This document shows positions 17,240 to 36,739 of a DNA stretch of 64,000 nt, piece by piece. Location: contig PFWT01000009.1 of the NCBI GenBank assembly GCA_002791275.1, positions 146,548-210,547 of the forward strand. Direction: 5' to 3'. Every line of letters starts with the position of its first letter. The stretch's first letter is position 1. Origin of the DNA: Candidatus Uhrbacteria bacterium CG_4_9_14_3_um_filter_41_35. GTDB taxonomy: Bacteria; Patescibacteriota; Patescibacteriia; UBA9934. The position numbers were made by a program, and so were the translations under genes. Under the pieces are notes generated by a model. The model ran no database searches and was not told the origin of the DNA. It was given only the letters and a program-made list of their open reading frames with translations.

Positions 17240-18811
17240 TTAAATCTCGTCCTTTTTTTCGCGCACAAAAGAAATCCAACTCTCTACAAAGCGAATAGCA
17301 ACTTTAAGCGGTGCTTCGATGATGAAATCGAAAAAATAAATAAAGATATTGATTTTTGAAACATTGTGCGAAAGCCAGCGCCCTGCGATCACAAGAGGCA
17401 ACATAAAGAAATCAAAAAGTGTGCCGATTAGTCCGCTACGGGCGTCTGAAAGCACAACTTCTTTGGTTGACATTCTAATTCTGATACCAAAGAAAGTAAC
17501 CAGCGAAATAAAGAAGAGGAAGAGAGCAACAGAAAGCCAGGTGAAATTAAAGCCAACCAAAACGAAGCCGATCAGTCCGTAGGTAAAGAGGTACATTAAA
17601 GTGTAGGTGAAGCCAAAAAGCTTTGACCAAGCTCCGAAGCTACTTGCCTTAACCTTCACATTCAAGAGGTCGTGATCAGCACTCACAGAAAGTGCCCGCA
17701 CAGCGCTCTGGTAGTCGGTGGTATTTTTTCGTTCCTTAATACCAATTGTCAAACCAATAACAGCCAAGAATAATGGGTGGAATAGGATATTTACAAGCAA
17801 CGGAGTTGCGCTAATTTCGCCATACATTACTAAATCATATGGTACCTCGAGCGCCAAAGCTAACAACATTTTAGTGAGGAACAAAAATAGCACAGCTCTA
17901 AGCACTGTTCTTTGTAAACGTTTTCTAAATACTGTTGTTCGTTTTTTTAACTGCCTAGCAACAGCGCGATCGAGTAAATCTGGGTCGTCGAGTAGCGCAG
18001 GAAATTGCTTTGGTTCTTGCTCAATCGTATCTCTAATTACTCTAAACACGCCAGCTTTTCGTCGTAGCAAGAGTGATAACTTTCCAGTAACCGGATGCGA
18101 AAGCTGTCGTTCGATCAAGGCAATAACCGACTTGAGGTTTTTTGTAATATCTTCTATTTGTTCACGATTTGATGCGCCTGGCCAATCCGGATAGTAAAGC
18201 GTCAGAACTCTAAAACGCAAAGTTGCCTGATTTGACCTGAGTAAAATTTGATGAATCGCAATATACAGCAATAAATCCTTATCCTCACTTGATAAAACAA
18301 TCCGCGGATCCCACTCAATTCTGGACCGCATTTCTTCGTACATATAACTCACCAGAGCTTCATCTCCAACTGGTGGTGTAATTGCGTATTCAACTTCTGT
18401 TGAGAGAACATCGATGACCCAGTTAAAGGCATCCTCGCGTTTTTCGCCAAAGTCTTCGGTGGCTCGAAGTAGTGGTTCGTACTTCATGAAAATCGGAATG
18501 AGCTCATCTATAAGACGCGCCGGCACCTCTTTATTTGGGAGATACCTAGCCCAAATCAGCTCGCGAAGTAAGTCGCCAGCCATATTTTCAATTGGTACAT
18601 CTGAACCAATATACCGCTTAATAATTCGCAAAATTGCGTTACGCCGCAATAAGTGCTCCTCCTGATAATCGATCGAGGTTCTGAGCTTTTCGTAAATTGT
18701 AGCAGCTGTGCTAGCCGGTGCGCTCACTTCAATCATTTCCTCCCCCGCACTTTCTCCAAAACCAACCGGCCTGGCCAGTTGCGCTGTAAGACGAGTTAAT
18801 TTTTCAGACAT
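17240..18811 (-). CDS. hypothetical membrane protein (large N-terminal soluble domain, C-terminal multi-TM region)
   Basis: 523-aa ORF with a hydrophobic C-terminal third and no motif I recognise. Confidence 0.5.
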   Translation of the reverse strand: MSEKLTRLTAQLARPVGFGESAGEEMIEVSAPASTAATIYEKLRTSIDYQEEHLLRRNAILRIIKRYIGSDVPIENMAGDLLRELIWARYLPNKEVPARLIDELIPIFMKYEPLLRATEDFGEKREDAFNWVIDVLSTEVEYAITPPVGDEALVSYMYEEMRSRIEWDPRIVLSSEDKDLLLYIAIHQILLRSNQATLRFRVLTLYYPDWPGASNREQIEDITKNLKSVIALIERQLSHPVTGKLSLLLRRKAGVFRVIRDTIEQEPKQFPALLDDPDLLDRAVARQLKKRTTVFRKRLQRTVLRAVLFLFLTKMLLALALEVPYDLVMYGEISATPLLVNILFHPLFLAVIGLTIGIKERKNTTDYQSAVRALSVSADHDLLNVKVKASSFGAWSKLFGFTYTLMYLFTYGLIGFVLVGFNFTWLSVALFLFFISLVTFFGIRIRMSTKEVVLSDARSGLIGTLFDFFMLPLVIAGRWLSHNVSKINIFIYFFDFIIEAPLKVAIRFVESWISFVREKKDEI

Positions 18812-18836: not shown

Positions 18837-19583
18837 TTAAAAGAAAGTTCGAGGACAAGAATCTTTAACTAGATCAAAAGCCTCTTCCGCCGTATCCACT
18901 ACCTGAAAAATATCCATATCTTCTCGATTAATGGTATCGAACTCTGCGTAAAGAACATCCTCAATCCACTTAATTAAACCACCCCAATATTCTTTACCAA
19001 CTAAAACCACCGGGACTTGAATTGCTTTTTTTGTTTGAATAAGTGTGAGAATTTCAAACAGCTCATCTTGGGTACCAAAACCACCCGGGAAGTAAATATA
19101 GGCTTGAGCCGAGGCTGCCAAAATCACCTTTCGGGTGAAGAAGTAGTAAAAAGCTCGTGATTTGTTCACAAATGGGTTTACTCGCTGTTCGTTTGGTAAT
19201 TGAATATTAAGACCAACCGAAACTCCGCCAGCTTCCGCAGCACCTTTATTTGCCGCCTCCATAATACCAGGACCACCGCCAGTTACTACCGTAAAGCCAT
19301 CTTGTGCCAATAAACGACCCATCTTCTCTGCTTCCTGATACCATCTGTTACTTGCCGGCAGTCGAGCCGATCCCATGATGGTCACCTCTTTGTCGAGGTG
19401 AGAGAGGAACTGAAAGCCTTCAACGAATTCAGACATTATTCTAAAAATCCGCCAAGTAATTTCAGACATTCTTGGCTCTGCGCCAGGTATTTTGAGATCC
19501 TTTTCTTCTTCCGTAAAAGGAATCCGGCAGATATTTACCTTTTCTATTTTTTTATTATTTGATTTTCCATTCATAATACTCAT
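18837..19583 (-). CDS. LOG-family (TIGR00730) nucleotide 5'-monophosphate nucleosidase
   Basis: VVTGGGPGIMEA, PGGFGTQDELFE (PGGxGTxxE). The start is uncertain because of the N-terminal extension. Confidence 0.7.
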   Translation of the reverse strand: MSIMNGKSNNKKIEKVNICRIPFTEEEKDLKIPGAEPRMSEITWRIFRIMSEFVEGFQFLSHLDKEVTIMGSARLPASNRWYQEAEKMGRLLAQDGFTVVTGGGPGIMEAANKGAAEAGGVSVGLNIQLPNEQRVNPFVNKSRAFYYFFTRKVILAASAQAYIYFPGGFGTQDELFEILTLIQTKKAIQVPVVLVGKEYWGGLIKWIEDVLYAEFDTINREDMDIFQVVDTAEEAFDLVKDSCPRTFF

Positions 19584-19636: not shown

Positions 19637-19668
19637 CAAAAAAGAGCCTTTCGGCTCTTTTAATTTAA
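19637..19668 (-). terminator. intrinsic terminator after major pilin gene
   Basis: agagcc-tttc-ggctct hairpin with A-run and T-run flanks. Confidence 0.6.
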
Positions 19669-19671
19669 TTA

Positions 19672-20190
19672 TTATCTAACAGCACTAATTGCTGTTGTAT
19701 TCTCTGACTCACAAGCGCCAACTGTAAGTGTGCCGTTTGCGTTCTTTGTAAGTGTGTAACCGGTTGTAACCGCATCCCAAGTCGCAAGCCCGTTTGGACT
19801 TACAGGTACAGCTCCAAGGTAACCCTGCGTTACGAGTGTAGTTAGATCAACACCACTGGTAGCACTAGTAACATTCACATCACAGTTTGTGTTGTTAACA
19901 TTGCAAGTTGTAGTACAGGTACCGATCATATAAACGTTACCAGCGATTAGCGCAGTAATAGCTGCGTCGTAGTCGCCACCATTGTCGACCTGATCGATTT
20001 TAGCTGCGTGCAAAACCTGAGTTACATCTGAGCTTCGTCGTGCGTCTCGTGCATCTCTGAATCGAGTTGCAGGGTCAAGAGCAACGAATACAATACCCGC
20101 CAAAATCGCGATAATCACAATCACGATTAAGAGCTCGAGCAGTGTAAAACCTTGTTCTGAATCTTTTAAGTTTTTAATCTTATTAATCAT
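19672..20190 (-). CDS. type IV pilin (candidate major pilin)
   Basis: Leader followed by the G|FTLLELLIVIVIIAILAG class III signal (E at +5). Cys pairs in the C-terminal domain and a strong terminator downstream. The ORF track extends the N-terminus to 20253. Confidence 0.7.
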   Translation of the reverse strand: MINKIKNLKDSEQGFTLLELLIVIVIIAILAGIVFVALDPATRFRDARDARRSSDVTQVLHAAKIDQVDNGGDYDAAITALIAGNVYMIGTCTTTCNVNNTNCDVNVTSATSGVDLTTLVTQGYLGAVPVSPNGLATWDAVTTGYTLTKNANGTLTVGACESENTTAISAVR

Positions 20191-20255
20191 ATTTTTAATT
20201 ATATTTAAATCTATTATATCAAACTTGACGTATATATCTAACAACCTGTGCACAA

Positions 20256-21242
20256 TTAAATAAAATTGTGATCTTTGCGGTATTTGTGCTTTTTCACCGA
20301 TCTTAAAGCAGCACCGATTGCCGAGCCGTAAATTTGCAATTCTTTTTCGCTTATATTAGGGATACTAATAACCGAACCTATGCGAATTACCTTACTATTC
20401 TTAATACTTTTATCACACAGTTCCGCAACATTTGGTTGCCCCCCTTCTACACCCGCAAATATAATAAATGGAATCGAGTAACCTGAATCACTAAAAAATT
20501 TATGTGCTTCCTTAATAGCTCCGCAAATTTTTAGAAGAACTTCTTTAGTAATCAGTTTAGTCTTACCACCACTTTTGTCAGCAAGCTTTCGGATTGCAAT
20601 AGATCTAGAAAAAACCGTAGCCCCGGCAATATCGTAAACTGTAATATTCGTCCACCTATGGCCAACATCCACAATCATTATCATCTGCGTATCTTCGGTA
20701 ATTGAAAATTCGTTTAGAACAAAATGGGCATAAAGTCTATCTACCGCCTTATTATTCGACTCAATAGCCACTAGCGGAAATTGCTCACTGGCAAATACTG
20801 TCTGAAGTGAATTCAAAATATCTTTCTCTACAGCCAGAACAGTATTCCTCACCCCTTCGCTTACCTTCGCTCCATCTTCAAAAGCAATAAATGCGTCCTT
20901 AAAAGGCATTGGAATATCCTCTTGTCCGCCTTCGATCATTTTAGCTTTTTTCTCCTCCTTTAACAGTTTTTCAGAAGACATTATAAAACTTGTTGAAAAA
21001 ACTCTTGATTCTGGGACTAAAATCGTAGTGTCTGCAGTTATATCTTGAATGCCGGACTTTACTAAAAGTTTCTTGATCTGTTCCTTGAGTTCCTTTGGTT
21101 TTTCAATTTTATCGTCAACAATGTAGCCTGGCGACAAGACAAGCTCATAAAGACCAACAGGTATTCCACTGTGGTTTACGTAGGCAATTCTAATATGGTG
21201 ATCCGAAACGTCAATTCCGATTCCTGATGAAAGTAATGGCAT
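20256..21242 (-). CDS. pilM: type IV pilus assembly protein PilM-like (actin/FtsA-like ATPase fold)
   Basis: GIGIDVSDHHIRIAYV N-terminus, a C-terminal IYGSAIGAALR and its position within the pilus operon. Confidence 0.55.
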   Translation of the reverse strand: MPLLSSGIGIDVSDHHIRIAYVNHSGIPVGLYELVLSPGYIVDDKIEKPKELKEQIKKLLVKSGIQDITADTTILVPESRVFSTSFIMSSEKLLKEEKKAKMIEGGQEDIPMPFKDAFIAFEDGAKVSEGVRNTVLAVEKDILNSLQTVFASEQFPLVAIESNNKAVDRLYAHFVLNEFSITEDTQMIMIVDVGHRWTNITVYDIAGATVFSRSIAIRKLADKSGGKTKLITKEVLLKICGAIKEAHKFFSDSGYSIPFIIFAGVEGGQPNVAELCDKSIKNSKVIRIGSVISIPNISEKELQIYGSAIGAALRSVKKHKYRKDHNFI

Positions 21243-21243
21243 A

Positions 21244-21714
21244 TTAAATTTCTTCCCAATTTGTAATTAAAACATTAATTGCATTTCCAAAATTGTTATA
21301 AACCAGAGCTGTGTTGACAACTAGATTTCTTGTTATACCCGCAACTGTTACAGCAACCGTAATAAGTCTTGTGCTTCCCCCACCAGTTACAGTAACCGTA
21401 CACACACCATTTCCGATAGTTGTAATCGTTCCACCAGTATAACCAATATTGTCCTTCAGTCTATAAATTGCCTCATCAACACAGGCTTCACCGATTTGAA
21501 TTGCCTGATGCGCCTGATCAGATTCTAGATTTAGCGAAAGTTCGTTTACACTAAATTTAGCAACAGCTAATCCAAGTGATAATGTCATTGCTAAAATTAC
21601 AACCACAACAAGTAGCGCAGCAACTCCGTGCTCATCTTTTTGGATAATCTTAAATTTATTTTTCAGGCTTTTCATCTGTTTAATTATAGAATTTTTCCTA
21701 GCGCACCACAACAC
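21244..21714 (-). CDS. PilX_N-domain minor pilin-like protein
   Basis: Hydrophobic N-segment GVAALLVVVVILAMTLSLGLAV followed by AHQAIQIGEACVDEAIYRL. An internal Met at 21675 is an alternative start. Confidence 0.45.
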   Translation of the reverse strand: MLWCARKNSIIKQMKSLKNKFKIIQKDEHGVAALLVVVVILAMTLSLGLAVAKFSVNELSLNLESDQAHQAIQIGEACVDEAIYRLKDNIGYTGGTITTIGNGVCTVTVTGGGSTRLITVAVTVAGITRNLVVNTALVYNNFGNAINVLITNWEEI

Positions 21715-22240
21715 TTGTTTGCATAGAGGTTGAGGTATTTATTAATACTCCTGATTTATCGCGCCACTCCAGTGTGAGATCTATTTTAATATTTGTTGTT
21801 CTGCCCGGAACACTTAGATCCGTGAAGACTAGACTGGTGACATTAACTAGGTCCGAACTTATGTTCATCGGCGCGCCAGCTCCCTGCTGAATGCGAACTA
21901 CACCGCCCACAACATCAAAAACTGTTGGGTCCAAACTCCCGGTATTATTCACGAGCGAAAGAACGCCGGGATTTACGCCAAAACTTGAAGTTGTGAAATT
22001 AACATCGTTTGCCGACTTAATTTCGCGCGCAATTTTTTCCATTATGAACCGACCATTTTGACTAACTTCGTGCATAGTTCTCGCCTTTTGACCGCTTTGG
22101 ACAACGCTAACAGTGAAGCCAATCATACTAGTAAAAAAGACGGAAATAATCGCAAGATATATAATCAATTCCACTAAAGTATTACCTTTTGTATTCGATC
22201 TTATCTTTTTTAGACCAGAACTTATAGCAAGAACATTCAT
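21698..22240 (-). CDS. type IV minor pilin (prepilin N-terminal domain)
   Basis: KG|NTLVELIIYLAIISVFF prepilin-type signal with a Glu at the conserved +5 position. 180 aa. Confidence 0.55.
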   Translation of the reverse strand: MNVLAISSGLKKIRSNTKGNTLVELIIYLAIISVFFTSMIGFTVSVVQSGQKARTMHEVSQNGRFIMEKIAREIKSANDVNFTTSSFGVNPGVLSLVNNTGSLDPTVFDVVGGVVRIQQGAGAPMNISSDLVNVTSLVFTDLSVPGRTTNIKIDLTLEWRDKSGVLINTSTSMQTSVVVR

Positions 22241-22241
22241 A

Positions 22242-25200
22242 TTATTTATAAGTTACGGTGATGTCATTAAATAGCGGTGGAGTAAGCGCACCTGTTGATG
22301 TAATAATCACCCGGTACTGGAAGTAGCGACCAGTTTGACCAGCCAAACTCACACCATCTGCGGTTGTGTAATCCGGTGAAAAAACTGACCAAGTACCATC
22401 AATAACCGGCGAATTTCCACTCCGCACCGCTACGGTAATTTCTGAATTAGCCGGCAAAGTTTCACTCCACGAGAGTGTGTCCCAAACATTTGAAGCAACG
22501 TCGCTGTCAAAAATTATTGATGTGTAAGTCCCGAGTCCTCCCACGGAACCAGCACCACCACCGATAATTTGCTCAAGATGCATAAAGAGTCCAGCATCAC
22601 CTACAATCCAACCATTACCCGAACTTGTCATTGAGATGTCGTTCAAATTAGTGGTAACCGGTGAAGTAAAGAGCGCCCAAGAGATGCCCTTGTACTGAAT
22701 TAAGGCTCCGGCATCCCCAACTGCCCAGCCGTCATCGAAAGCTGTTAAATTGATCGCATTAAGATTTGCAACTGTTGGTGAAGTATCCGTTGTCCAAGTT
22801 GTCCCGTTATAGATGAGGATCGTACCAGTTGCACCAACCGCCCAACCATCGGTGGCCGAAACCATATAGATATCGTTCAGTTGATTGCCAGTTGGCGATG
22901 TTACAGTGCTCCAGTTTGAACCATTGTAGTGAATAATGGTACCGCCTGCCCCCACTGCCCAAATATCGCCAGGACCAACCGCATAAACAGCCTGTAGGTT
23001 TTGTATTGTTGGTGAAGTAGTCAATACCCAATTTACACCGTTAAAATGTAAAATTATACCGCCGTTACCCACTGCCCAAGCATCCGCCGTATCTATTACA
23101 TCAACTGCGGTTAGATTGTTTACAGTTGGTGAAGACATTGTGGTCCAAACCCCCGTATCATTTTTTACAATCGTACCATTATCACCTACGGCAAAACCTG
23201 TTGTTTCATTAAAGAAATCAACCGCGTTCACGTTAACTGTTACTGGCGACGCGTCCACATCCCAAGCGGTACCAGCGTAACTATTGAGCGACCCTAGGTT
23301 GGCCACTGAGAAACCGACCGTATCTGAAACTAAATGAATACCATTGATATTTTCAGTTGTTGGGTTGTTGTAGCTAATTTTTATTGAGTCTAGGCTTGGC
23401 GTAATGCTTTGATTCAAGGTACTTAAAGTAACTTCATACTGCAGATACTGACCATTTAGCGAAGCAATTACTTCACCGTTTGGATTGGTATACGCACCAG
23501 CAAACGCTGACCAGCTACCGTCTGGTACTGGTGTTGCGCCAGTCCGAGTGTTAATCACAACATCCACTGCCCCCTGACCAATATCTTCAACCCAAGAAAT
23601 ATAATCCCAGTGAGTGTTTGGATCTAGACTGTTGATTATCGGAGAAGTGTAGGTACCGGTTAAGAAGTAAAGTCCTGTGTAGTGCACAAAGGTTGAACTC
23701 AGACCTCCGGCCCAGATATCGCTGCTATCCGCGATCGAAACTGAGTTAAGATCTGTCCCCGTTGGTGAACTCGCTTGTGTCCAAGTTAACCCGTCCCACT
23801 TTAAAATAACTCCATTGTCTCCCACAATCCAGCCATCAGTCGCCGAAACCATTTCGACATCCTGAAGCTCACTATTCGTTGGCGACGCCACATTTGACCA
23901 ACTTGTTCCGTCGTAGTGCATAATCGTGCCACTGCGACCAACTACCCAACCGTCTGTTGCAGAAATGAAATTGATAGCATTTAAGTTTTGACTCGTTGGT
24001 GTGCTCATTGAAGACCAGTTTGAACCGTTCCAATGCAGAATTCGACCACTTCGACCTGCAATATAACCATCTGTAGCCGAGATCATACTAACATCATTTA
24101 AACTACTACTGGTGCCTGAGTTAACTAAGGACCAAGAAATACCGTCATACGAAAGGATTTTTCCATTTTTTCCAACAGCCACTCCAAACGAGGAGCTGAC
24201 CATATCAACATCATAAAGTGTTTGTGAGGTTGGTGAAGTTGCAATTGTCCAGACCGAACCATTGTTTACTAAAATCTGACCCTCTTCACCCACCGCCCAA
24301 CCTTCGGTTGCTGATGCAAAATCAACTCCGTACATTTGTTTTTGTGTTGGAGAATTGATTTGCGACCAGCCATTATTTTCGTATTTAAACATTGCACCGT
24401 TTCGTCCCACAGCCCAACCAGTTGAACTATTAATCATACAAATATCTTCCACCGTATCGTTTCCAAGTTCAGCTGTGTAGTCACTCCAGTATGTTGGAAT
24501 AAAGTAGGTTGTTGCTGTCCAAACTGTACCATCATAATTTGCCACCATTCCATTTGCGCCAACCGCAAAGCCGGAAGAAGTGTTTTGCATTTTTACTCCA
24601 ATAAAATCCTCAGTCGTAAGCGTGGTAACTGTGTACCAATTACTTCCGTTATAGTGAAGTATCGTCCCTGAGTCACCAACAGCCCAAACATCATTTGTAG
24701 CAATAGCATATACGCCACGTAAATCATCATGAGTTGGTGTGTTTACACTCGACCACGAAGACCCGTTCCAGTGCCGAGCCGTGCCATTATCCCCAACAGC
24801 CCAACCGTCATTCGCCGAAATAAAGTACACATCTCTAAGTTTCTGTGAGGTGCCGCTTGAAACGTTTGACCAACTATTACCGTTCCAATGAATTATTTGA
24901 CCACTCTCACCAACAGCCCAACCATCTGTTGTTGAAAGCATATAAACTGCTGCGAAGTTTCTAGATGTTGGTGAGGAGATTTTTGACCAAGAATTGCCAT
25001 TGTACCGTAAAATTGTTCCATCCTCGCCAACTGCCATACCAAAACTTGAACTTACCATTGAAACACTTGCCAGATCTTCTGAGGTTGGCGAAGAAACCGT
25101 GCTCCAGGTTCCATTATAATTCAAAATCGTACCCGAATCACCAACCGCAAAGCCGTTATTTGAATCTATGAAATCAAGAGAATTTAAGTCACGAGTCGTT

Positions 25201-26885
25201 GGAGAAGATAAATCGATCCAATTTGTGCCGTTAAAATTTGCTATTGTACCAGAATCTCCAACACCCCAACCGCTTGTGTTACCAAGTATTTCAACACTGT
25301 TAAGATCATTTGAACCAGAGACGCCACTTGCACCTGTGCCGTCAAACAAACCAATCACCGGTATACTCGATCCCCCAACGAACCAGCCATTATTTTCGTC
25401 TAGCAGATAAACACTCTTTAGATCCTCACCAGTAACTGATGCCTGTGCTGTCCAGCTACTACCATTCCAGTGGAAAATATCCCCGTTATCACCAACCGCA
25501 ACACCAAAGTTAGCGCTCACCATTGATAAACCTCTTATATCAGGTGAACCTGAAATTTGCTGGCTAACCCACGAATTACCATTGTAAAAAATCATGGTTC
25601 CCGATCGACCTCCTGCCCAGACATGCGAGGCATCAACCGCATAAACCGTGTAAAGTCGTTGATTAATTGGATTTGATACCGAAATCCATAGAGAGCCATT
25701 CCAATTATACGTGTGCCCATTTCGATCAACGGCCCAAGCATTAGTTTCTGAAATTACTGAAACATCGTATAAATCAGAATTGGTACCAGAAGTAACCGCT
25801 GTCCAAACAGCTCCATTCCAGTGTTGAATTTCACCACCAGTTGCGACAATCCAGCCATCAGTCGGGCTTGAAAAATCTATCGCATTCAAATTTTTATTAC
25901 TTGCCGAGGGTATAGTACTCCAGCTAAGACCATTCCAGTGAAGTATTAGGCCGGAATCTCCAACCAACCAAACATCATTCACCGATTTAACATAAACTCC
26001 ATTTAAATCTGCAGTTACTCCACTTGCCACCTGAAACCAATTTGCACCATCCCACTTCAAAATTGAACCAGTATTTCCAACTGCATAGCCAAGATCTGCG
26101 GAACTCATGTGAATGTCATTTAACAAATCCGAGTTAGCAGCTGGCGGAGAAAATACTCCCCATTGTGGGGTATTGTTGAGTTCAATCGATGCTGTAGCTC
26201 CGGTTCTTGCTCGAACTGTGTCCGTGAAGGTTCCTGGATCAAAATCAAGATCGGTCGTATGAATTACCGACAGTCCTCCTCCAGGAATCCACCTGTCAAC
26301 GGCAAAGGATGTGTCTCCTGAAATTGTGAGTGATGCTGAATCGCCAGTGCCATTTATTACAATGTCCGTTGCCGTACCAGCGCTAAAATCAGTACTCGAA
26401 GTTTCGTGCCAATCAAAAACGTTCCAGTCGGTTAAATAAGTAACCGCCTGCACACTTCGCAGAGCGTTTCTGGCAGTCCAACTCACAACTGAAGTTACTT
26501 TTTTTGTACGCGGATCAATCTGCCCGCCGGTTGCCACGATATTATTATTCACATCCCGCTCAACACTTGAAATTGTAACCACACGAGTGTAAATATCAAC
26601 AATGTCATTTACACCACTAAACGCCCAGCTACCACCCGTGTTTGCCACGCCATGCGCACCGTCAATTAAGTTCAGCCAAGATTCATCGCGGATACTCCGA
26701 GCCGCTTCAAGTCCCTCCTGCGCTATAACCGTTGCCCGCACCTCTTCGTTACTGACGCCAAGCGAAACTAAACTATCAAGGAAAATTGTGCTCACAACCA
26801 AGGTTATGATACTAAAAATCGACATGGCAATAACTACTTCTGCCAAACTTTGACCTTTTTTATTTTTGAAAATTGAAGTAAACAT
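22242..26885 (-). CDS. giant prepilin-fused multi-beta-propeller protein (candidate pilus-associated adhesin)
   Basis: N-terminal KG|QSLAEVVIAMSIF prepilin signal. At least 26 tandem blades, each about 42 aa, with the motif t-SPT-x-DL-x-V-x(5)-GWAVGdsGtILhYNGsnWS, plus two copies of a roughly 90-aa non-repeat module. Translationally coupled to its flanking pilin genes. Confidence 0.85.
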   Translation of the reverse strand: MFTSIFKNKKGQSLAEVVIAMSIFSIITLVVSTIFLDSLVSLGVSNEEVRATVIAQEGLEAARSIRDESWLNLIDGAHGVANTGGSWAFSGVNDIVDIYTRVVTISSVERDVNNNIVATGGQIDPRTKKVTSVVSWTARNALRSVQAVTYLTDWNVFDWHETSSTDFSAGTATDIVINGTGDSASLTISGDTSFAVDRWIPGGGLSVIHTTDLDFDPGTFTDTVRARTGATASIELNNTPQWGVFSPPAANSDLLNDIHMSSADLGYAVGNTGSILKWDGANWFQVASGVTADLNGVYVKSVNDVWLVGDSGLILHWNGLSWSTIPSASNKNLNAIDFSSPTDGWIVATGGEIQHWNGAVWTAVTSGTNSDLYDVSVISETNAWAVDRNGHTYNWNGSLWISVSNPINQRLYTVYAVDASHVWAGGRSGTMIFYNGNSWVSQQISGSPDIRGLSMVSANFGVAVGDNGDIFHWNGSSWTAQASVTGEDLKSVYLLDENNGWFVGGSSIPVIGLFDGTGASGVSGSNDLNSVEILGNTSGWGVGDSGTIANFNGTNWIDLSSPTTRDLNSLDFIDSNNGFAVGDSGTILNYNGTWSTVSSPTSEDLASVSMVSSSFGMAVGEDGTILRYNGNSWSKISSPTSRNFAAVYMLSTTDGWAVGESGQIIHWNGNSWSNVSSGTSQKLRDVYFISANDGWAVGDNGTARHWNGSSWSSVNTPTHDDLRGVYAIATNDVWAVGDSGTILHYNGSNWYTVTTLTTEDFIGVKMQNTSSGFAVGANGMVANYDGTVWTATTYFIPTYWSDYTAELGNDTVEDICMINSSTGWAVGRNGAMFKYENNGWSQINSPTQKQMYGVDFASATEGWAVGEEGQILVNNGSVWTIATSPTSQTLYDVDMVSSSFGVAVGKNGKILSYDGISWSLVNSGTSSSLNDVSMISATDGYIAGRSGRILHWNGSNWSSMSTPTSQNLNAINFISATDGWVVGRSGTIMHYDGTSWSNVASPTNSELQDVEMVSATDGWIVGDNGVILKWDGLTWTQASSPTGTDLNSVSIADSSDIWAGGLSSTFVHYTGLYFLTGTYTSPIINSLDPNTHWDYISWVEDIGQGAVDVVINTRTGATPVPDGSWSAFAGAYTNPNGEVIASLNGQYLQYEVTLSTLNQSITPSLDSIKISYNNPTTENINGIHLVSDTVGFSVANLGSLNSYAGTAWDVDASPVTVNVNAVDFFNETTGFAVGDNGTIVKNDTGVWTTMSSPTVNNLTAVDVIDTADAWAVGNGGIILHFNGVNWVLTTSPTIQNLQAVYAVGPGDIWAVGAGGTIIHYNGSNWSTVTSPTGNQLNDIYMVSATDGWAVGATGTILIYNGTTWTTDTSPTVANLNAINLTAFDDGWAVGDAGALIQYKGISWALFTSPVTTNLNDISMTSSGNGWIVGDAGLFMHLEQIIGGGAGSVGGLGTYTSIIFDSDVASNVWDTLSWSETLPANSEITVAVRSGNSPVIDGTWSVFSPDYTTADGVSLAGQTGRYFQYRVIITSTGALTPPLFNDITVTYK

Positions 26886-27349
26886 TAGTTTCGGGTTATA
26901 GCTCCAGCTGGATTGACTAAGATTGTTTTTTTCTCCGCTGTTTCGTTTAATTCGACCGTAATCGTGGCCGGGGTCGAAGTGTTTCCGTGCGAATTATTAA
27001 ACAGCACATCTGCGCCCCCACCCTGAATTGTAATCTGAGACAAAGTTGTAGAATTTGGCAGGGTTGTTGTAACATTATCCGGAGCTCCTGGAATATAGGT
27101 AGTGCCTCGGTACAAAGTAAAATCATTAGCTGTAAAGTGCACACCCCAAACATCATTTTGACGACCATTCATAGTGTGCCACTCGGCGCGCCTCAGAGTA
27201 TCAACAACATCTGTTGAAACGTTTACTAAATCATTTCTGTTAACCGAAGAACTCATTACCAAGGCGCCAATCAAAACTATTATCGATGATAACGCGGTTA
27301 CTATCAGCGTTTCAAGTAAAGTAAAACCATGGTGATTTATGTTTTTCAT
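26885..27349 (-). CDS. type IV pseudopilin (GspH/FimT-like)
   Basis: HG|FTLLETLIVTALSSIIVLIG prepilin signal. Confidence 0.6.
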   Translation of the reverse strand: MKNINHHGFTLLETLIVTALSSIIVLIGALVMSSSVNRNDLVNVSTDVVDTLRRAEWHTMNGRQNDVWGVHFTANDFTLYRGTTYIPGAPDNVTTTLPNSTTLSQITIQGGGADVLFNNSHGNTSTPATITVELNETAEKKTILVNPAGAITRN

Positions 27350-27357
27350 AAGGATGA

Positions 27358-28512
27358 TTAAACACCCGACAAAATTGAATAAATTGGTGTCAGAATAGAC
27401 ATCGCCATAATCGCTACCACACCTCCAATAAATAGAAGCATAATCGGTTCCAAGATTGACGATAGGTTTTTTGACATCACCATCACCCGTTCTTCATAAT
27501 AATCAGCCAAAAACTCGAGTGTTGAACCTAAACTTGCAGATCTTTCACCAACCGCAACCATTCGCTGAATCATTTTTGGATATAGATCAGGGTACCGTTC
27601 AATAATTGCCGAAAATTCGCTACCGCCCGCTACCTGTTTCATCATATTCTTCACTGATTTTGCGTAAACGTAGTTTGGCATCACTCGCGAAGTAATATCG
27701 AGCGCCTCTTCGATCGCGGTTCCACTTTGCAGTAAGGTTCCAACAGTCCTACAAAAGCGAGCGCGATTGATAAGGTTTGTAAACACACCAACCACCGGGA
27801 TTGCTAAAAGTACTCTGTCAGTAATTGGACGCACCGCCTTTCGCCTTGAAAACCAAAGGAAAAACACGGTACCTCCGATTGAAGCTGGTACCACAATCGC
27901 GCCATAGGCCACGAAGAAATTTGAAACCCAGATCAAAATTCGGGTAGTAATCGGCAGTTCCACGTTCAAAGACTCGAAAATCTGGCTAACCTGTGGCAAC
28001 ACGAAAATTGCAATTCCAAAACCGAGCACAACTGCCATACTAAGTACCACGGAAGGATAAATCATAGCTGACTGCACATTTCGCTTTAAGCTAAGATCGC
28101 TCTCCATTTGTTTTGCTAAACGTTCAAGGTTTGCGTCGAGAGTCCCTGAGTTTTCTCCCACCTCCACAGCACTAATAAACGAAGCATCAAAAGTTTTCGA
28201 CTCAAATTTTAAAGCATCAGCAAAAGCTGAACCGCCCTGAACTCGACGATTTACCCGTTTTAACACCTTCTTGAGGGTCCCCACCGACTGCTCTGTGATT
28301 ACCTCAAGCGCTTCAGGCACCGAAAGACCAGCATTTAGCATAACCGCAAAGTGCTTCGAAACCATCGCTACATCGGTGGTTTTTACCTTACCTAAACTAA
28401 TTTCCGTCTTGTACCAAGGAAGTTTTCCTTCTTTTGCAACGACCCTGTTAAGGCTATTTTTTGTCGGACTATTATTCACTTTTTTTGTAATTGTTTTTGC
28501 CATATTATTCAA
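27358..28512 (-). CDS. pilC: type IV pilus platform protein PilC (GspF family)
   Basis: Two GspF-type repeats with 3 TM segments. Confidence 0.8.
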   Translation of the reverse strand: MNNMAKTITKKVNNSPTKNSLNRVVAKEGKLPWYKTEISLGKVKTTDVAMVSKHFAVMLNAGLSVPEALEVITEQSVGTLKKVLKRVNRRVQGGSAFADALKFESKTFDASFISAVEVGENSGTLDANLERLAKQMESDLSLKRNVQSAMIYPSVVLSMAVVLGFGIAIFVLPQVSQIFESLNVELPITTRILIWVSNFFVAYGAIVVPASIGGTVFFLWFSRRKAVRPITDRVLLAIPVVGVFTNLINRARFCRTVGTLLQSGTAIEEALDITSRVMPNYVYAKSVKNMMKQVAGGSEFSAIIERYPDLYPKMIQRMVAVGERSASLGSTLEFLADYYEERVMVMSKNLSSILEPIMLLFIGGVVAIMAMSILTPIYSILSGV

Positions 28513-29497
28513 TAATTCCGTCAGCTTGGAGTTGTTCTAAAACTTGTTTCATAGAAATCATTCCAAATTTTCGTCCGGTTTCGATAGCTGAACGTATAGT
28601 TGAAAGTTTGTTGTTTCTTATAGCATTCCTTACCGCCGAAGTTGAGGTTAAAATTTCCCTCGCAGCCATTCGTGTACCATCTTTCTTCATCACAAGGTGT
28701 TGCGATACAACCATTTTTAAGGCAGCTGATAGTTGAATTAAAATCTGTTGCTGCTTTGCGCCTTCAAAAACTCCCACAATTCTTTCTACAACTTCAGTGG
28801 CATTTGGCGAGTGAAGAGTTGATAAAACCAAGTGTCCAGTTTCCGCAGCTGTTAACGCTAGTTCAATAGTTTCCGGATCACGCATCTCGCCTATCACAAT
28901 TACATTCGGATCCTGCCTTAAAACGTGGCGTAAACCCGAGGCAAAAGTCTGAAAATCTGTCCCAAGCTCCCGTTGTTCAATAAGTGAATTACCTTTTTGA
29001 AAACGGTATTCAATCGGATCTTCGAGTGTAATAATGTGCTGTTTGTCAGTTTCATTGATGTGTTGAATCATTGTTGCAAGCGTAGTTGACTTTCCGGTTC
29101 CTGCCGGACCACTTAAAATAACCAGGCCACTTAGCTCACCGACAATATCTAAAATTTGCTGATCAAGTTCTATTTCTTCTGGCGTTGGCGGTTCGTTTGC
29201 AAAAATTCTTATTGAAAGCCCAAAACCGCCCGATTGTTTATGCGCATTAATTCGCAAAAATGTTTTACTCACTTCAAGACCAGTATCTACATCTCCAGTT
29301 TTCACCAATCTAGATTTTTGTTCAGCATTTAAAATTTTTCCCAGTATATTCTTTGCCTCAACCTGTGTAAAAATAGGCTTATCTATAACCGTCAGTTCAC
29401 CTTCAATTCGAAAATAAGGCGCTGATCCAACCACCAAGTGGATATCCGAGGCACCTTTCTTGAGCGCAAGTAATAGTATTTTTTTAAATTCCTCCAT
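28505..29497 (-). CDS. pilT: twitching-motility retraction ATPase PilT
   Basis: GPAGTGKSTT Walker A, VIVIGEMRD and 330-aa PilT-size ORF. Confidence 0.8.
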   Translation of the reverse strand: MEEFKKILLLALKKGASDIHLVVGSAPYFRIEGELTVIDKPIFTQVEAKNILGKILNAEQKSRLVKTGDVDTGLEVSKTFLRINAHKQSGGFGLSIRIFANEPPTPEEIELDQQILDIVGELSGLVILSGPAGTGKSTTLATMIQHINETDKQHIITLEDPIEYRFQKGNSLIEQRELGTDFQTFASGLRHVLRQDPNVIVIGEMRDPETIELALTAAETGHLVLSTLHSPNATEVVERIVGVFEGAKQQQILIQLSAALKMVVSQHLVMKKDGTRMAAREILTSTSAVRNAIRNNKLSTIRSAIETGRKFGMISMKQVLEQLQADGIIE

Positions 29498-29498
29498 A

Positions 29499-31187
29499 TT
29501 ATTCTTGAGTTACGCGCAAAACTTCTTCGAGCGTAGTTTCACCGGTTAATATTTTCTGTACCCCATCAAAAAGCATTGTGCTCATTCCCTGCTTAACCGC
29601 TATTTCTTTGACTTGATCGGCATCTTTATTACTCATTACCGCTTCTCTGATTTCATCTGTAACTGCCAAAAGTTCAAAAATTCCGGTTCGACCCTTGTAA
29701 CCTGTGTTTTTACAAATTTTACAACCCTGACCGTGAAAAACACGAATACCTGAAAGTGATTTCTTGCCGGTTACATCAGAAAAATATTTTTTTAAGTGCG
29801 GTAAATGGTTAATGGTTTTCAGTTCCTGCTCCGAAATATTCACACTTTTAATACAGTTCAAACAGATCCTTCTCACCAGTCGCTGGGCAATAACCACCAA
29901 AATTGTTGAAGAAACCAAAAAGTCTTCAACACCCATATCTTTAAGTCTTGGAAAGGCGGTTGCAGCGTCGTTTGTGTGTAAAGATGAAAAAACCAAATGC
30001 CCGGTCATCGCAGCGTTCACTGAGATATCTGCTGTTTCGCCGTCTCGAATCTCCCCCACCATAATAATGTCCGGATCCTGACGAACAATTGAACGCAATC
30101 CCTTGGCGAAAGTTAGGTTAGTTTTTGGGTTAACCTGAATCTGGCTAATACCATCAACATCATATTCAACCGGGTCTTCAATCGTGGCAATATTCACCTC
30201 GCGTTTGTTTAAAACCTTGAGCGCAGCGTAAAGCGTGGTACTTTTTCCTGAACCTGTTGGTCCAGTCACCAGGATCATACCCCAAGGTTTTTTGATAGCT
30301 TTTTTAAAAAGCTCAAAATGCGCCTCGCTTAAACCAAGATCCGTTAGGCTGAATTGACGAGTCTTCGCAGCAAGTAGTCGCATTACTGCTTTTTCACCGT
30401 TTGTGGTCGGCACAATTGACAAACGAATATCAATTTTGTCACCAAAATCGTTCGTATAGGAAATACGGCCATCCTGAGCTGCACGTTTTTCATCTGTCGC
30501 GAGTTTAGACAAAACCTTTAATCTGGTAATAACCGGGTCGTGAATTTTTTTAGGAAATTCTGCAATATCTTGCAAAATACCGTCGATTCTGAAACGAATC
30601 TGCGTAAACTCATCTTCGGGTTCAATATGAACATCACTAGTTCTAGTTTGATATGAATAATCAAAAATAGCATTAACAAGTTTTACAACAACTCCGTCCG
30701 AGTCATCGCTGTTTAAATCAGCGCCTTCGAGAATATTTTTAAAGGCAACCTTTGGATCTTTTTGAAAAAGGAATAAATTCGAAAGAATCTCACGTTCAGT
30801 TGAATAATAAAAAACCACCTCACGTCTTAAATATTTTTCAAGTAGAGCCTGTAAAGTAACGTCATGTGGGTTTGTAACTGCAAGGACTACCGAATCTTCG
30901 GTTTGTGAAATTGGCAGTAAATGTTTCTTTCGCGCAAAAGCTTCTGGAACTAAAAGAATAACATCGTCTTGTGGTTTTGTCTGTGCTGGATCGAAGTGCC
31001 GAACACCAAACCAAGACGCTACCAACTGACCAAGCTGGGCTTCGGTTAATGAACCATCTGAAACTAAAACACTGTCGATGCCTTTGGTTTTAGCACTTCG
31101 CGACTGCGCAGCTTTCATGAACTCCTCCCTTGTAACTCCACCCCCTTCAACCAGTGCCTCGTATAGTTGTTCTTTACTTAACACCAC
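29499..31187 (-). CDS. pilB: type IV pilus extension ATPase PilB (GspE family)
   Basis: GPTGSGKSTTLYA Walker A, Asp/His boxes and a C-terminal tetra-Cys motif CLNC..CKIC. Confidence 0.85.
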   Translation of the reverse strand: MVLSKEQLYEALVEGGGVTREEFMKAAQSRSAKTKGIDSVLVSDGSLTEAQLGQLVASWFGVRHFDPAQTKPQDDVILLVPEAFARKKHLLPISQTEDSVVLAVTNPHDVTLQALLEKYLRREVVFYYSTEREILSNLFLFQKDPKVAFKNILEGADLNSDDSDGVVVKLVNAIFDYSYQTRTSDVHIEPEDEFTQIRFRIDGILQDIAEFPKKIHDPVITRLKVLSKLATDEKRAAQDGRISYTNDFGDKIDIRLSIVPTTNGEKAVMRLLAAKTRQFSLTDLGLSEAHFELFKKAIKKPWGMILVTGPTGSGKSTTLYAALKVLNKREVNIATIEDPVEYDVDGISQIQVNPKTNLTFAKGLRSIVRQDPDIIMVGEIRDGETADISVNAAMTGHLVFSSLHTNDAATAFPRLKDMGVEDFLVSSTILVVIAQRLVRRICLNCIKSVNISEQELKTINHLPHLKKYFSDVTGKKSLSGIRVFHGQGCKICKNTGYKGRTGIFELLAVTDEIREAVMSNKDADQVKEIAVKQGMSTMLFDGVQKILTGETTLEEVLRVTQE

Positions 31188-31208
31188 ATGATTTTTTTAT
31201 ATTATAAC

Positions 31209-31237
31209 ATAAAAAAGTAGAGAGCCTGTGCTCTCTA
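31209..31237 (-). terminator. intrinsic terminator after response-regulator gene
   Basis: agagagc-ctgt-gctctct hairpin with a U-run on the minus strand. Confidence 0.55.
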
Positions 31238-31291
31238 TCCACTTTTTTATTTTTCTGTTTTAGTAGTCTCAATTTAAAATCTTGCCGTTGC

Positions 31292-31654
31292 CTAGATGTA
31301 AGATTTTATTTTTGCAACTACATCCTGAATTGATGCGTCTGACTTTACAATAAAATCTTTTGCACCAAGTAGTTTTGCTTTTTTAACATCTTCCTCTTGC
31401 CCTAGATTAGAAAGCACAATCACTGGAATTTTTTTAAGACTACTATCCTTTTGAATTGCCTCGAGCACGCTAAAACCGTCCAACTTAGGCATAATAAGGT
31501 CTAGTAAAACTAGCGTTGGGCTAATTTCTTTCATTTTTTTCAAACCCTCCTCTCCATTTAAAGAAAAATCCGCCTCAATTCCTTCTTTGTTTAGTTTTGT
31601 AGCATAAATCCTCGAAAGGAATTTATCATCTTCAATGATTAATACTTTGACCAT
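31292..31654 (-). CDS. single-domain response regulator (CheY-like receiver)
   Basis: IIEDD, the phospho-acceptor LLDLIMP, a KIPVIVLS block whose Ser is the conserved T/S and the conserved receiver Lys in FIVKS. Confidence 0.75.
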   Translation of the reverse strand: MVKVLIIEDDKFLSRIYATKLNKEGIEADFSLNGEEGLKKMKEISPTLVLLDLIMPKLDGFSVLEAIQKDSSLKKIPVIVLSNLGQEEDVKKAKLLGAKDFIVKSDASIQDVVAKIKSYI

Positions 31655-31731
31655 ATATATCGAATTCCTTTCTAGTATATCAGGTGTTAAAAATTATTAC
31701 TAATAAATCTCTGTGCACAGCACCAGAAAGC

Positions 31732-35046: not shown

Positions 35047-35916
35047 TTACTCTGGTCGATACTCTCGTTTGCAGGTTAAAATCCCCTCTTTATCTGAAAC
35101 CTGTAAATCGTACACTGTGGTGCAAGACTCGATTAATGTCTTATCGTTAACTGCAGTGTCTAAAATATAATAATTCCAAGTGCTATGCCCGTCTTCACCA
35201 AAACTATTTGAAATAAATGGCAAGCCTTCTAAATAGTCAGGGATAAACTTGTAGTCAAAACTTACGATTGGCACAGAAGTTACCTGTTCAAGTTTTAGAT
35301 CCTTATAACTTGATGAAATATTATAGATTTTTAGTTCCTGTTTACCCTGTTCAGCTATCAAATAAGTATTTTTAACTCCAGAACAAATTTCAAGGACACC
35401 ATCTAAACTTTTATTGTTTGCAAGTGCCTCAATTGCGTTAAAAAATCGCTCTGGACTTTGGACTACTCCTGATATTTGCTCTGCGATATCTTGCTTTTCA
35501 AGTTCTGTAAAACTTCGCGGGTCAACTGAACCAACATAATCCTTTGCGTTTACAATACTATTGAAAGATAAACACTCAGAGTTGCGCTTTTCCTCTCTCT
35601 CGGCTCTTTTGTTTGATAAATAAGTTTTGCGATCAGGTCCTGTACTTTCCTTAAAGTCAACTTTTGAAATAACCTGCGTAAAAGGATTCACCACTGCAAC
35701 ATTACTACTAAACACGGCCTCTGAAGCAATATATTTAAGTTCCTCCTCCAGCTGATTCTTCTGTTCGTCAACCGTTGGTGGGTTCCAGTAAAGTGCGTTC
35801 ATGACTACAATGAACATTAGAAAAATAATAAACAGAATCATGAACAGAATCGACAAAACTGTTCCGTTAAACTCGTGCTCGTGCTCAGGTGTGTGCTCGT
35901 GTTTATTTATTTTCAT
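35047..35916 (-). CDS. membrane-anchored hypothetical protein (His-rich N-tail, single TM, extracytoplasmic domain)
   Basis: HEHTPEHEHE N-tail and one TM helix. The C-terminal domain is weakly similar to the two paralogs downstream. Confidence 0.55.
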   Translation of the reverse strand: MKINKHEHTPEHEHEFNGTVLSILFMILFIIFLMFIVVMNALYWNPPTVDEQKNQLEEELKYIASEAVFSSNVAVVNPFTQVISKVDFKESTGPDRKTYLSNKRAEREEKRNSECLSFNSIVNAKDYVGSVDPRSFTELEKQDIAEQISGVVQSPERFFNAIEALANNKSLDGVLEICSGVKNTYLIAEQGKQELKIYNISSSYKDLKLEQVTSVPIVSFDYKFIPDYLEGLPFISNSFGEDGHSTWNYYILDTAVNDKTLIESCTTVYDLQVSDKEGILTCKREYRPE

Positions 35917-35919
35917 ATT

Positions 35920-36735
35920 TTAGTTTAAACACATCTCGCGATTTTCTTTAAAACTATACGTAATATCACCATTTTCCAAAACTGATTTCTGGTAAACACC
36001 CACCAATATACACGAATTATTCACCCAGTTTATAGAGACTTTTTTAAATGGATCATTAAAATCAGGTTCCCTATCCGTAAGCGACTCATCATTTTTAAGT
36101 TCGCCTACAACTGTTATGTTACCTTTGTTAAAATTATACACCAAAATCTGGTTTTCTAAATAATCATTATATAGTTTATCTGAAATATCTGAGCTAAACA
36201 CCACTGTCTGACTTTGATCTGGAGACAAAATGCCGGACTGACTTCTAAGACCAGTTTCAGAAACATCACCAGTTTTTAGGTTAACCTCCGACACTGCAGA
36301 GAAAAAATCTGCTTCATCTCGAATTAAAGAAACGTAAATTCGTCCATCAAAACCAACCTGGGGCACAGCTACTAAACTTGAAATTCCTGGCCAATCAAGC
36401 GCTAATTCGGATTCAAGTCCAGTTTTTCTGTCTATGCTAACCACTTTAGGCTTTCCGTCTAGCCCTCTAAACGAAGTCGTAAAAAGTGGGATCTGCGACT
36501 CTTTGCTGTTCATTAATTTCTCAGCATTATTTAAATCGTTTTGCAGTGCAATAATCTCATTTTTAGCGGTATCAATTTCAGTGTACTTAACCTTCGTCAC
36601 GTAAACTGCCAAAATAAGTAATACAGAGACAATGCCAAACATACTCAAAGATAACCCAGTGTAAAATCTACACCTTACTGGACACTTCATTTTTACAAAT
36701 GTCTTATTTCGAGTTGTTTGCATTCCCTCCTCCAT
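35920..36735 (-). CDS. membrane-anchored protein, paralog pair member (Cys-rich N-tail + TM + coiled coil + PD40-like domain)
   Basis: MKCPVRCRF N-tail and a TM helix. ENQILVYNF and VAVPQVGFDGRIYV align with ENQILLFDL and FAVPKLDYDGKIF of the adjacent gene. Confidence 0.6.
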   Translation of the reverse strand: MEEGMQTTRNKTFVKMKCPVRCRFYTGLSLSMFGIVSVLLILAVYVTKVKYTEIDTAKNEIIALQNDLNNAEKLMNSKESQIPLFTTSFRGLDGKPKVVSIDRKTGLESELALDWPGISSLVAVPQVGFDGRIYVSLIRDEADFFSAVSEVNLKTGDVSETGLRSQSGILSPDQSQTVVFSSDISDKLYNDYLENQILVYNFNKGNITVVGELKNDESLTDREPDFNDPFKKVSINWVNNSCILVGVYQKSVLENGDITYSFKENREMCLN

Positions 36736-36739
36736 AAAA

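Follow-up and report, generated by a model that had tools for sequence, protein, structure and literature searches.

The window analysed here, a 64,000-nucleotide stretch of contig PFWT01000009.1 from Candidatus Uhrbacteria bacterium CG_4_9_14_3_um_filter_41_35, carries ten consecutive open reading frames (ORFs) on the minus strand between positions 19672 and 31654 that make up a type IV pilus locus. It is an ordinary secretin-less, retractile pilus cluster for the Candidate Phyla Radiation (CPR), or Patescibacteria, and stands out for a very large pilin-anchored adhesin with four predicted propellers and for a partly reduced machinery. Encoded together are ATPases of the PilB and PilT types, PilC, PilM and five proteins with N-termini resembling class III (prepilin) signals. 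The leaders are 8–19 residues long, and the pattern G/xxxxE (the slash marks the end of the leader) occurs in PilA, a GspH-like pilin, a giant pilin and a 180-residue pilin, the fifth pilin-like protein being devoid of Glu5. We consider it very probable that the genes specify a type IVa-like retractile pilus in a host that has no outer membrane, in which the giant pilin would serve as tip adhesin, PilT would drive retraction, PilM would carry a peptide in cis and a response regulator would modulate the machine.

An initial annotation, made from the sequence alone, had described a secretin-less type IV pilus with an extension ATPase, PilT and a receiver-only response regulator, with genes in the order response regulator, pilB, pilT, pilC, pseudopilin, giant pilin, minor pilin, PilX_N protein, pilM and major pilin. 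All ten ORFs are present where it had located them, and hidden Markov model (HMM) scores and motifs bear this description out. Annotation with Pfam and NCBIfam HMMs backs its main gene labels, except for the PilX_N label.

Source, integrity and conservation of the locus

Window ORFs of at least 100 residues were scanned with Pfam, namely all long minus-strand ORFs and the non-overlapped plus-strand ORFs, except four near the window edges; ORFs nested in longer ones were left out. The 10 kb past each window edge were reached via identical metagenome contigs and judged by precomputed Pfam matches, which are missing for some genes. Gene content and order were compared by searching 35 related loci with the window proteins (tblastn).

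An identical PilT protein is encoded on contigs, including one of 160 kb, from a number of JGI and ENA metagenomes. Six independent JGI and ENA assemblies carry all genes of the locus and its flanks with 100% identity (0–1 mismatches per gene), and neither composition nor GC skew changes along the window. Because locus and flanks are identical in six assemblies, the window is not chimeric, which disposes of a concern voiced in the initial annotation. The closest genomes by PilB are all metagenome-assembled genomes of Patescibacteria/CPR, labelled Uhrbacteria, Peregrinibacteria, Gracilibacteria or Saccharibacteria (some of them mislabelled), the best being only 62% identical; this origin agrees with the monoderm-like, small-genome host that had been proposed.

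The order response regulator–pilB–pilC–GspH-like pilin–modular pilin–180-residue pilin–Glu5-less pilin-like protein–pilM–pilA recurs in loci L007–L038 across many CPR lineages, without pilT. Among the 35 related loci, a pilT between pilB and pilC occurs only in the two nearest relatives, L007 and L010, and in L035, an unrelated Syntrophomonas locus. It was not found in about 30 other Patescibacteria loci, within up to 10 kb on each side of pilB.

Two gene overlaps had been cited earlier as signs of a single operon, and neither is accurate. The one between pilT and pilC (28505/28512) needs a TTG start for pilC, and with the ATG at 28503 it becomes a 1-nt spacer. At the other (29497/29499), pilB ends at 29499 and pilT starts at 29497, again leaving 1 nt between them. 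Only the gspH-like and giant genes truly overlap, by 1 nt at 26885. If the likeliest start codons are taken, the gaps within the eight-gene stretch pilB–pilM measure −1 to 22 nt, a spacing compatible with a single operon for this part of the locus, as judged from the sequence.

Motor ATPases and platform protein

The PilB-type extension ATPase (29499–31187, minus strand, 562 residues) matches Pfam T2SSE with an E-value of 1.8e-128 and has an MshEN/GSPII N-terminal domain, the Walker A motif GPTGSGKS and a tetracysteine motif (CLNC...CKIC). Its best solved relatives, Thermus PilF and the PilB proteins of Geobacter and Myxococcus, align over the full length, whereas GspE aligns only from residue ~151. 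In the MshEN domain the key Arg of the published cyclic di-GMP motif appears to be missing in a by-eye comparison, and binding of this messenger is not claimed. The retraction ATPase PilT (28505–29497, minus strand, 330 residues) scores 355 bits with the NCBIfam model pilT_fam (PilT/PilU), above the curated cut-off of 319.1. It has the Walker A motif GPAGTGKS and, at residue 288, AVRNAIR of the AIRNLIRE type, and among solved structures Aquifex and Pseudomonas PilT match it best and score above PilU. The platform protein PilC (27358–28503, minus strand) has two T2SSF domains (Pfam T2SSF, two stretches, E 5e-56) and a probable start at ATG 28503, giving 381 residues; this start is used by all metagenome gene calls.

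The giant modular pilin

The largest gene of the locus (22242–26885, minus strand) encodes a 1547-residue modular minor pilin that matches Pfam N_methyl and, over five stretches, PSII_BNR (E 6e-38). Its class III signal, KKG/QSLAE, keeps Glu5. An HMM built from the protein's own repeats resolves exactly 28 repeats of 39 residues in four groups of seven (residues 249–508, 519–786, 800–1071 and 1170–1437). These groups are predicted to be four Ycf48-like seven-bladed propellers, the first from a structural model and the other three from the repeat pattern. In an AlphaFold2 model of residues 1–520, residues ~12–155 form a pilin module of the 'lollipop' kind, with helix 14–68 lying on a beta-sheet and a predicted local distance difference test score (pLDDT) mostly of ~83–94, and residues 156–240 form a low-confidence linker. 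The first propeller is modelled with seven blades at pLDDT >90, and its best structural matches are Ycf48 proteins (E 6e-16, TM-score 0.75 on the target). Residues 1072–1169 and 1440–1547 are two paralogous domains of ~100 residues with 33% identity (E 3e-17). No PilY1/Neisseria_PilC Pfam match was found on the protein, and strain-level hypervariation of the adhesin is not seen among the six assemblies, which are identical.

At the corresponding slot of the related loci only the first ~150–240 residues are conserved, and the ORF ranges from about 210 to 1547 residues. An exhaustive HMMER search with the N-terminal module (residues 1–175, window 26361–26885) matched 4160 clusters at 50% identity with E<=1e-3, and 1651 with E<=1e-10; the module is always N-terminal in the matched proteins, which are 136–2116 residues long. 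The giant protein thus represents a large form within a modular minor-pilin family that is widespread. A word-based search with the first 250 residues returned 10 proteins only, and the family became visible with exhaustive HMMER. In a word-indexed search with all 1547 residues most matches were unrelated Ycf48/BNR-repeat proteins, and the protein's own cluster was missing from them; repeat-rich queries seem to saturate the candidate list. The protein has the three features by which modular type IV pilins are defined (Raynaud et al., 2021), namely a class III signal, a pilin module and a grafted non-pilin module. Such pilins were widespread in that 2021 survey, whose largest case was an 860-residue CPR protein, and the concept was established with PilB and PilC of Streptococcus sanguinis, which have been shown to be pilus subunits and act as tip adhesins (PMC8179133).

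Smaller pilins and PilA

Upstream of the giant gene lies that of a GspH/FimU-like minor pilin (26885–27349, minus strand, 154 residues, leader MKNINHHG/FTLLE), which matches Pfam N_methyl and GspH (22.9 bits against a cut-off of 21) and keeps its position in 22 related loci. Downstream follows a minor pilin of 180 residues (21698–22240, minus strand, G/NTLVE) that matches N_methyl and is also conserved in position. It is possibly GspJ/PilW/ComGF-like; weak NCBIfam matches to HpsC and ComGF were obtained, and a PDB profile search with 18 homologues matched generic pilin N-termini only. The next protein (21244–21675, minus strand) has 143 residues from its likely start at 21675 in an ORF of 156, and carries one N-terminal hydrophobic helix after a Gly (HG/VAALL), without Glu5. 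Across 16 homologues two Cys never vary. In Pfam and NCBIfam no family scores above threshold for this protein, and a PDB profile search was empty. This is the ORF that had been labelled PilX_N, a family assignment that we reject: the window protein gives no PilX_N match at E<=0.1, and when 15 homologues are added one of the 16 proteins matches, at E 0.009. Its position and its Glu5-less N-terminus mark it as a probable PilX/GspK/ComGG analogue.

The last gene of the locus (19672–20190, minus strand) encodes a PilA-like pilin of 172 residues (Pfam N_methyl, E 2.3e-9) with a 14-residue leader, MINKIKNLKDSEQG/FTLLE, and Cys at positions 92, 96, 103 and 160. Its start is most likely ATG 20190 and not GTG 20253, because the ORF from GTG 20253 would span pilA's own promoter. 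PilA is the most conserved pilin over the related loci, at 29–60% identity (>50% in about a dozen) versus 22–54% for the minor pilins, and on this sequence evidence it is the probable major subunit. About 2.9 kb past the window's left edge there is a VKOR-family gene (L066, 12790–13257), which may bear on pilin disulfides, given the four Cys of PilA and the two of the Glu5-less protein.

PilM and the missing parts

PilM (20256–21242, minus strand, 328 residues) is a cytoplasmic actin-like protein without a transmembrane segment that matches Pfam PilM_2 at 39 bits (cut-off 27); its profile matches Pseudomonas aeruginosa PilM with an E-value of 1e-15. The AlphaFold2 model has a pLDDT of 92.3 and a predicted TM-score of 0.92. 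Its best fold match is 5EOU, an engineered P. aeruginosa PilM:PilN1-12 chimera, and the Thermus PilM–PilN complex 2YCH follows the same fold with a TM-score of 0.74.

The C-terminus of PilM ends in ...DHNFI (DNA ~20259–20290), conserved as ...[QD]HNF[LI] in 28 homologues. In more distant CPR PilM proteins GINLL, INFI or INLM lies close to the C-terminus, at most a few residues before the stop (the tail was seen in L018, L019, L023, L024, L026, L028 and L036). In PilN, the N-terminal peptide that binds PilM has the motif INLLP, which the HNF[IL]/INLL tail resembles. Judged from sequence, the tail may be a PilN remnant, that is, a PilM-binding peptide fused in cis. In the model the final residues, with a pLDDT of ~92, are as confident as the body, and this ordered C-terminus fits a docked tail. 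In the known PilM–PilN systems the peptide sits on the transmembrane protein PilN, whereas here the peptide-like tail is on PilM itself and no transmembrane PilN follows it. The exception is the distant locus L024, and only that locus, where a transmembrane helix after the tail motif makes a true PilM–PilN fusion. An apparent PilM–pilin fusion ORF in L028 and L036 is an ORF-extension artefact, as a stop codon parts the genes. No paper came up in a full-text search that combined PilM and INLLP.

In the scanned window ORFs and among the called genes 10 kb past each edge, no match was found to Secretin, PilN, PilO or Peptidase_A24, which accords with the earlier statement that pilQ, pilN, pilO and pilD are absent from the window. 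Within the locus there is no free space for PilN or PilO, and a regular-expression scan for the A24 active-site motif was negative in the window and in the 41 loci L001–L041. A CPR pilus without PilQ is the published rule, CPR bacteria having no outer membrane, and the missing secretin is therefore no peculiarity of this locus (PMC6744442).

Receiver-only response regulator

The first gene of the locus (31292–31654, minus strand) encodes a single-domain response regulator of 120 residues, whose only Pfam match is Response_reg (residues 4–105, E 5.5e-21). Read from the translation, the phospho-acceptor pocket is intact, with D9, D10, the phospho-acceptor D52, S82 and K104. Among solved structures the closest are RR468 and CheY, both stand-alone receivers. 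Of the 35 related loci, 10 have a homologue directly before pilB in the same orientation, an eleventh has one 1.4 kb upstream of pilB, and four others have one nearby in a different arrangement. Because the regulator recurrently adjoins pilB, a functional link with the pilus can be argued. HATPase_c, HisKA, CheW and MCP gave no match in the scanned window ORFs, and an association of the PilG/PilH (Chp) kind was not encountered there.

Transcription signals and units

The element TGnTATAAT occurs eight times in the window (19590, 20213, 31201, 37688, 39327, 41619, 49122 and 52865) versus 3.06 expected; two of 100 shuffles reach eight, and nearly all sites precede a gene start by a short distance, on the strand of that gene. 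The element is probably the organism's main promoter motif, often without a clear -35. A one-mismatch variant, TGATATACT, lies ~20 nt upstream of the response regulator start (31674–31682, minus strand) and is promoter-like by sequence. The gap between the regulator gene and pilB (31188–31291) holds a terminator-like hairpin (31218–31237, minus strand), TAGAGAGC-ACAG-GCTCTCTA followed by CTTTTTT (intergenic fold z = -3.2). An extended -10 match, TGTTATAAT, comes next, 13 nt before the pilB start (31201–31209, minus strand), and it recurs in L008, with a variant in L007. The same gap in L008 (9950–9985) has the stem AACGAGCC/GGCTCGTT and a T-run, then TGTTATAAT, and in L007 (6190–6310) AATCCA/TGGATT and T8, then TTGACG-17-TGATATAAT. 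A hairpin with a T-run and then a promoter is thus conserved in structure and position over the three loci, and the stem sequences are entirely different. Because structure and position are kept while the stem sequence differs, a real terminator–promoter pair can be argued.

In the 65-nt spacer between pilM and pilA there is a pattern match to the extended -10 element, TGATATAAT, with TAGATA 16 nt upstream (20213–20221, minus strand). Directly after the pilA stop comes a putative intrinsic terminator (19640–19661, minus strand), AAAAGAGCC-GAAA-GGCTCTTTT then TTGTT. Its 9-bp GC-containing hairpin and T-run at 19661–19640 agree with the strong terminator noted earlier behind the major pilin. Predicted signals of this kind make three transcription units (the response regulator; pilB, pilT, pilC, the four pilins and pilM; and pilA) more likely than one. 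The single operon that had been suggested for the whole locus is not upheld: a terminator and a promoter split the regulator from pilB, pilA has its own promoter and terminator, and the cited overlaps were inaccurate.

Proposed mechanism and rival explanations

For the preferred reading, a CPR type IVa-like retractile pilus, we propose the following sequence of events. A prepilin peptidase encoded elsewhere would cleave the leaders. The GspH-like pilin, the giant pilin, the 180-residue pilin and the Glu5-less protein would form a priming or tip complex, a four-member assembly suggested by a gene order that matches gspH-I-J-K, comGD-GG and fimU-pilVWX. PilB, acting via PilC, would polymerise PilA under this complex, so that the ~170 kDa four-propeller module would come to lie at the tip as an adhesin for a host cell or a surface. 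PilT would then depolymerise the filament and pull the cell to its target, for attachment, twitching and possibly DNA uptake. A secretin would not be needed. PilM would form a cytoplasmic ring carrying the PilN-like peptide in cis, and a transmembrane PilN and PilO would be either dispensable or encoded elsewhere. The response regulator, probably transcribed separately, would modulate motor activity or direction by protein contact in the manner of CheY or PilG/PilH, and not by DNA binding.

Several observations weigh against this proposal. The tip location and the ligand of the giant pilin, the 'major' status of PilA, the docking of the PilM tail and the contact of the regulator with the motor are all inferred. 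No prepilin peptidase, PilN or PilO was found in ~84 kb, so that a complete machine is not demonstrated, and the window has no histidine kinase. The H-I-J-K assignment draws on a GspH match just over the cut-off, on very weak ComGE, ComGF and HpsC matches and on gene order, and its last protein has no family match. PilB falls below both NCBIfam equivalog cut-offs, with GspE marginally higher (533.8 bits, cut-off 630.25) than PilB (520 bits). The promoters and terminators are pattern matches whose regional counts, for both, equal shuffle expectation, and what supports them is position-specific conservation in the relatives. A bolder version of the proposal would have the motor stripped down to run without PilN and PilO, PilN being reduced to a peptide fused to PilM; the ~170 kDa four-propeller cap would be possible only without a secretin pore, and direct control of the motor would fall to an orphan receiver-only regulator that is linked to pilB in many CPR lineages. 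We regard this version as tentative and hold it to be considerably less probable than its opposite.

The most serious rival is that the machine is primarily a competence pilus, in which PilT retraction would deliver bound DNA to a channel formed by ComEC, the giant pilin being either incidental or a binder of DNA or debris. The order ATPase–platform–pilins resembles comGA-GG, and the pilin N-termini give weak matches to ComGD, ComGE and ComGF. Com operons are not known to carry PilT or PilM, both of which are present here. The NCBIfam scores of ComGA (248.5 against a cut-off of 300) and ComGB (160.3 against 240) are well below those of PilB/GspE and PilC/GspF. No ComEA, ComEC or DprA gene was found in the window, the only DprA-family match being a sub-threshold one on a LOG-family protein, and four propellers look like a ligand-binding adhesin. 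DNA uptake has been proposed for CPR type IV pili, and PilT-driven retraction serves it in other bacteria (PMC6744442 and work cited therein). We judge a primary role in competence unlikely, although DNA uptake and adhesion are not mutually exclusive. A pseudopilus of type II secretion kind, exporting proteins and forming no surface pilus, is very improbable. The GspE (534 bits), GspF (276 bits) and GspH models do give top or near-top scores, and since the PilB and GspE scores are about equal and both under cut-off, family HMMs alone do not settle which ATPase this is. GspF, however, is also below its equivalog cut-off (424), and besides the GspE/F/H-type matches no Gsp family, GspC, GspD, GspL and GspM included, was found in the scanned window ORFs. 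The locus also has a genuine PilT and a PilM, the ATPase aligns in its N-terminal domain to PilB/PilF and not to GspE, and CPR bacteria lack an outer membrane across which to secrete (PMC6744442). The ATPase is assigned to the pilus type on sequence grounds: the full-length PilF/PilB alignment, the low ComGA and ComGB scores, the presence of PilT and PilM, the lack of any type II secretion part and a host without an outer membrane. A Com or type II secretion origin of the ATPases had been named earlier as the finding that would overturn the pilus reading; with HMM and PDB bit scores as a proxy for a rooted phylogeny, ComGA and ComGB are well under cut-off and no part specific to type II secretion was found.

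A different doubt concerns the 1547-residue protein, which might act outside pili if its prepilin signal only made it a PilD-processed membrane anchor, with the propellers displayed on the cell surface. The linker at 156–240 is of low confidence, the size is extreme for a pilus subunit, and incorporation into the filament is itself an inference. Against these points, the gene's place among the minor-pilin genes is conserved, and its junctions with the adjacent genes are a 1-nt overlap or spacer; the protein retains Glu5 and a pilin fold that is predicted well; homologous modules head proteins of 136–2116 residues throughout the family; and the modular pilins of S. sanguinis have been shown to be pilus subunits (PMC8179133). 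A membrane anchor outside pili is accordingly a poor bet in our estimation. That the locus is an assembly chimera of unrelated pilus genes can be given almost no credence; no support for it was found, and the 100% identity of six assemblies, the uniform composition and GC skew and the same gene order in distant relatives all stand against it.

Comparison with known systems and significance

The closest experimental precedent for the retractile CPR pilus comes from Nanosynbacter lyticus TM7x, a member of the Saccharibacteria whose pili have been shown to drive twitching and host binding and whose PilX2, a minor pilin with a seven-bladed propeller, is a candidate adhesin (PMC12206443). Its T4P-1 system shares with the window a CPR host, PilB, PilT, PilC, PilM, several pilins, the lack of PilQ and a propeller-bearing minor pilin (PMC12206443, PMC9894109, PMC6744442). 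However, the T4P-1 locus has pilN, pilO and pilD, none of which was found within ~84 kb here. PilX2 contains a single propeller, of the RCC1 type, and no PilD signal is predicted for it; the window protein combines a canonical G/E5 signal with four predicted Ycf48-like propellers and a further two domains. These TM7x and CPR pilus papers (PMC12206443, PMC9894109, PMC6744442) make no mention of a receiver-only regulator upstream of pilB, such as the window has.

The modular pilins of S. sanguinis (PilB with a vWA domain, PilC with a lectin; PMC8179133, PMC9934059) resemble the window protein in having a small pilin module and a grafted ligand-binding module, in belonging to a PilT-retractile pilus of a monoderm and in their proposed tip site. 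Their payload is one domain, as against ~1390 residues here (four predicted propellers and two beta-rich domains), and the payload sequences are unrelated. In the type IVa pili of Pseudomonas, Neisseria and Myxococcus, PilY1/PilC sits on FimU-PilVWX, again a large propeller adhesin on a four-member minor-pilin complex of a PilB/PilT pilus, an arrangement that is proposed for the window from its genes. PilY1 is a non-pilin with a PilY1-type propeller in diderm hosts with PilNOPQ, in contrast to the Ycf48/BNR-like propellers fused to a pilin module here, and the likeness is functional only. The ComG pilus of Firmicutes shares with the window a monoderm host, the order ATPase–platform–pilins (D-E-F-G) and the lack of a secretin; it is not known to have PilT or PilM, both of which the window has, and the ComGA and ComGB models score under cut-off on the window proteins. 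The PilM–PilN structures 2YCH and 5EOU share the PilM fold.

As the organelle with which ultrasmall CPR bacteria locate host cells, bind to them and exploit them, type IV pili are the best candidate, and the need for them has been shown in cultivated Saccharibacteria. The locus itself adds little to the current picture of CPR pili, and none of the three leads it offers overturns present understanding. A catalogue of the modular minor-pilin family, with thousands of clusters and payloads from none to ~2000 residues, would be a catalogue of candidate host-recognition modules, of which the predicted four-propeller form in the window is a large example. A CPR PilM with an apparent PilN-like peptide in cis bears on the minimal set of parts of a type IV pilus motor. 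Finally, the receiver-only regulator conserved beside pilB points to an unstudied control input.

Neighbouring genes

Directly downstream of pilA lies a gene of the LOG/Lysine_decarbox (SLOG) family (18837–19583) with its own promoter-like element TGATATAAT; it also adjoins pilA in L008 and L012 (66–68% identity). The sub-threshold DprA match of this LOG protein reflects the common SLOG fold and is no evidence of competence. On the other side of the locus, three tandem genes (35047–37585; 289, 271 and 281 residues) have no Pfam match and encode one N-terminal transmembrane helix each; they are found beside the locus in all six assemblies, and the second and third proteins are distant paralogues (22% identity, E 3e-11). 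Large ORFs without a Pfam family are located at 17240–18811 (523 residues, with several transmembrane segments) and at 58426–60582 (718 residues).

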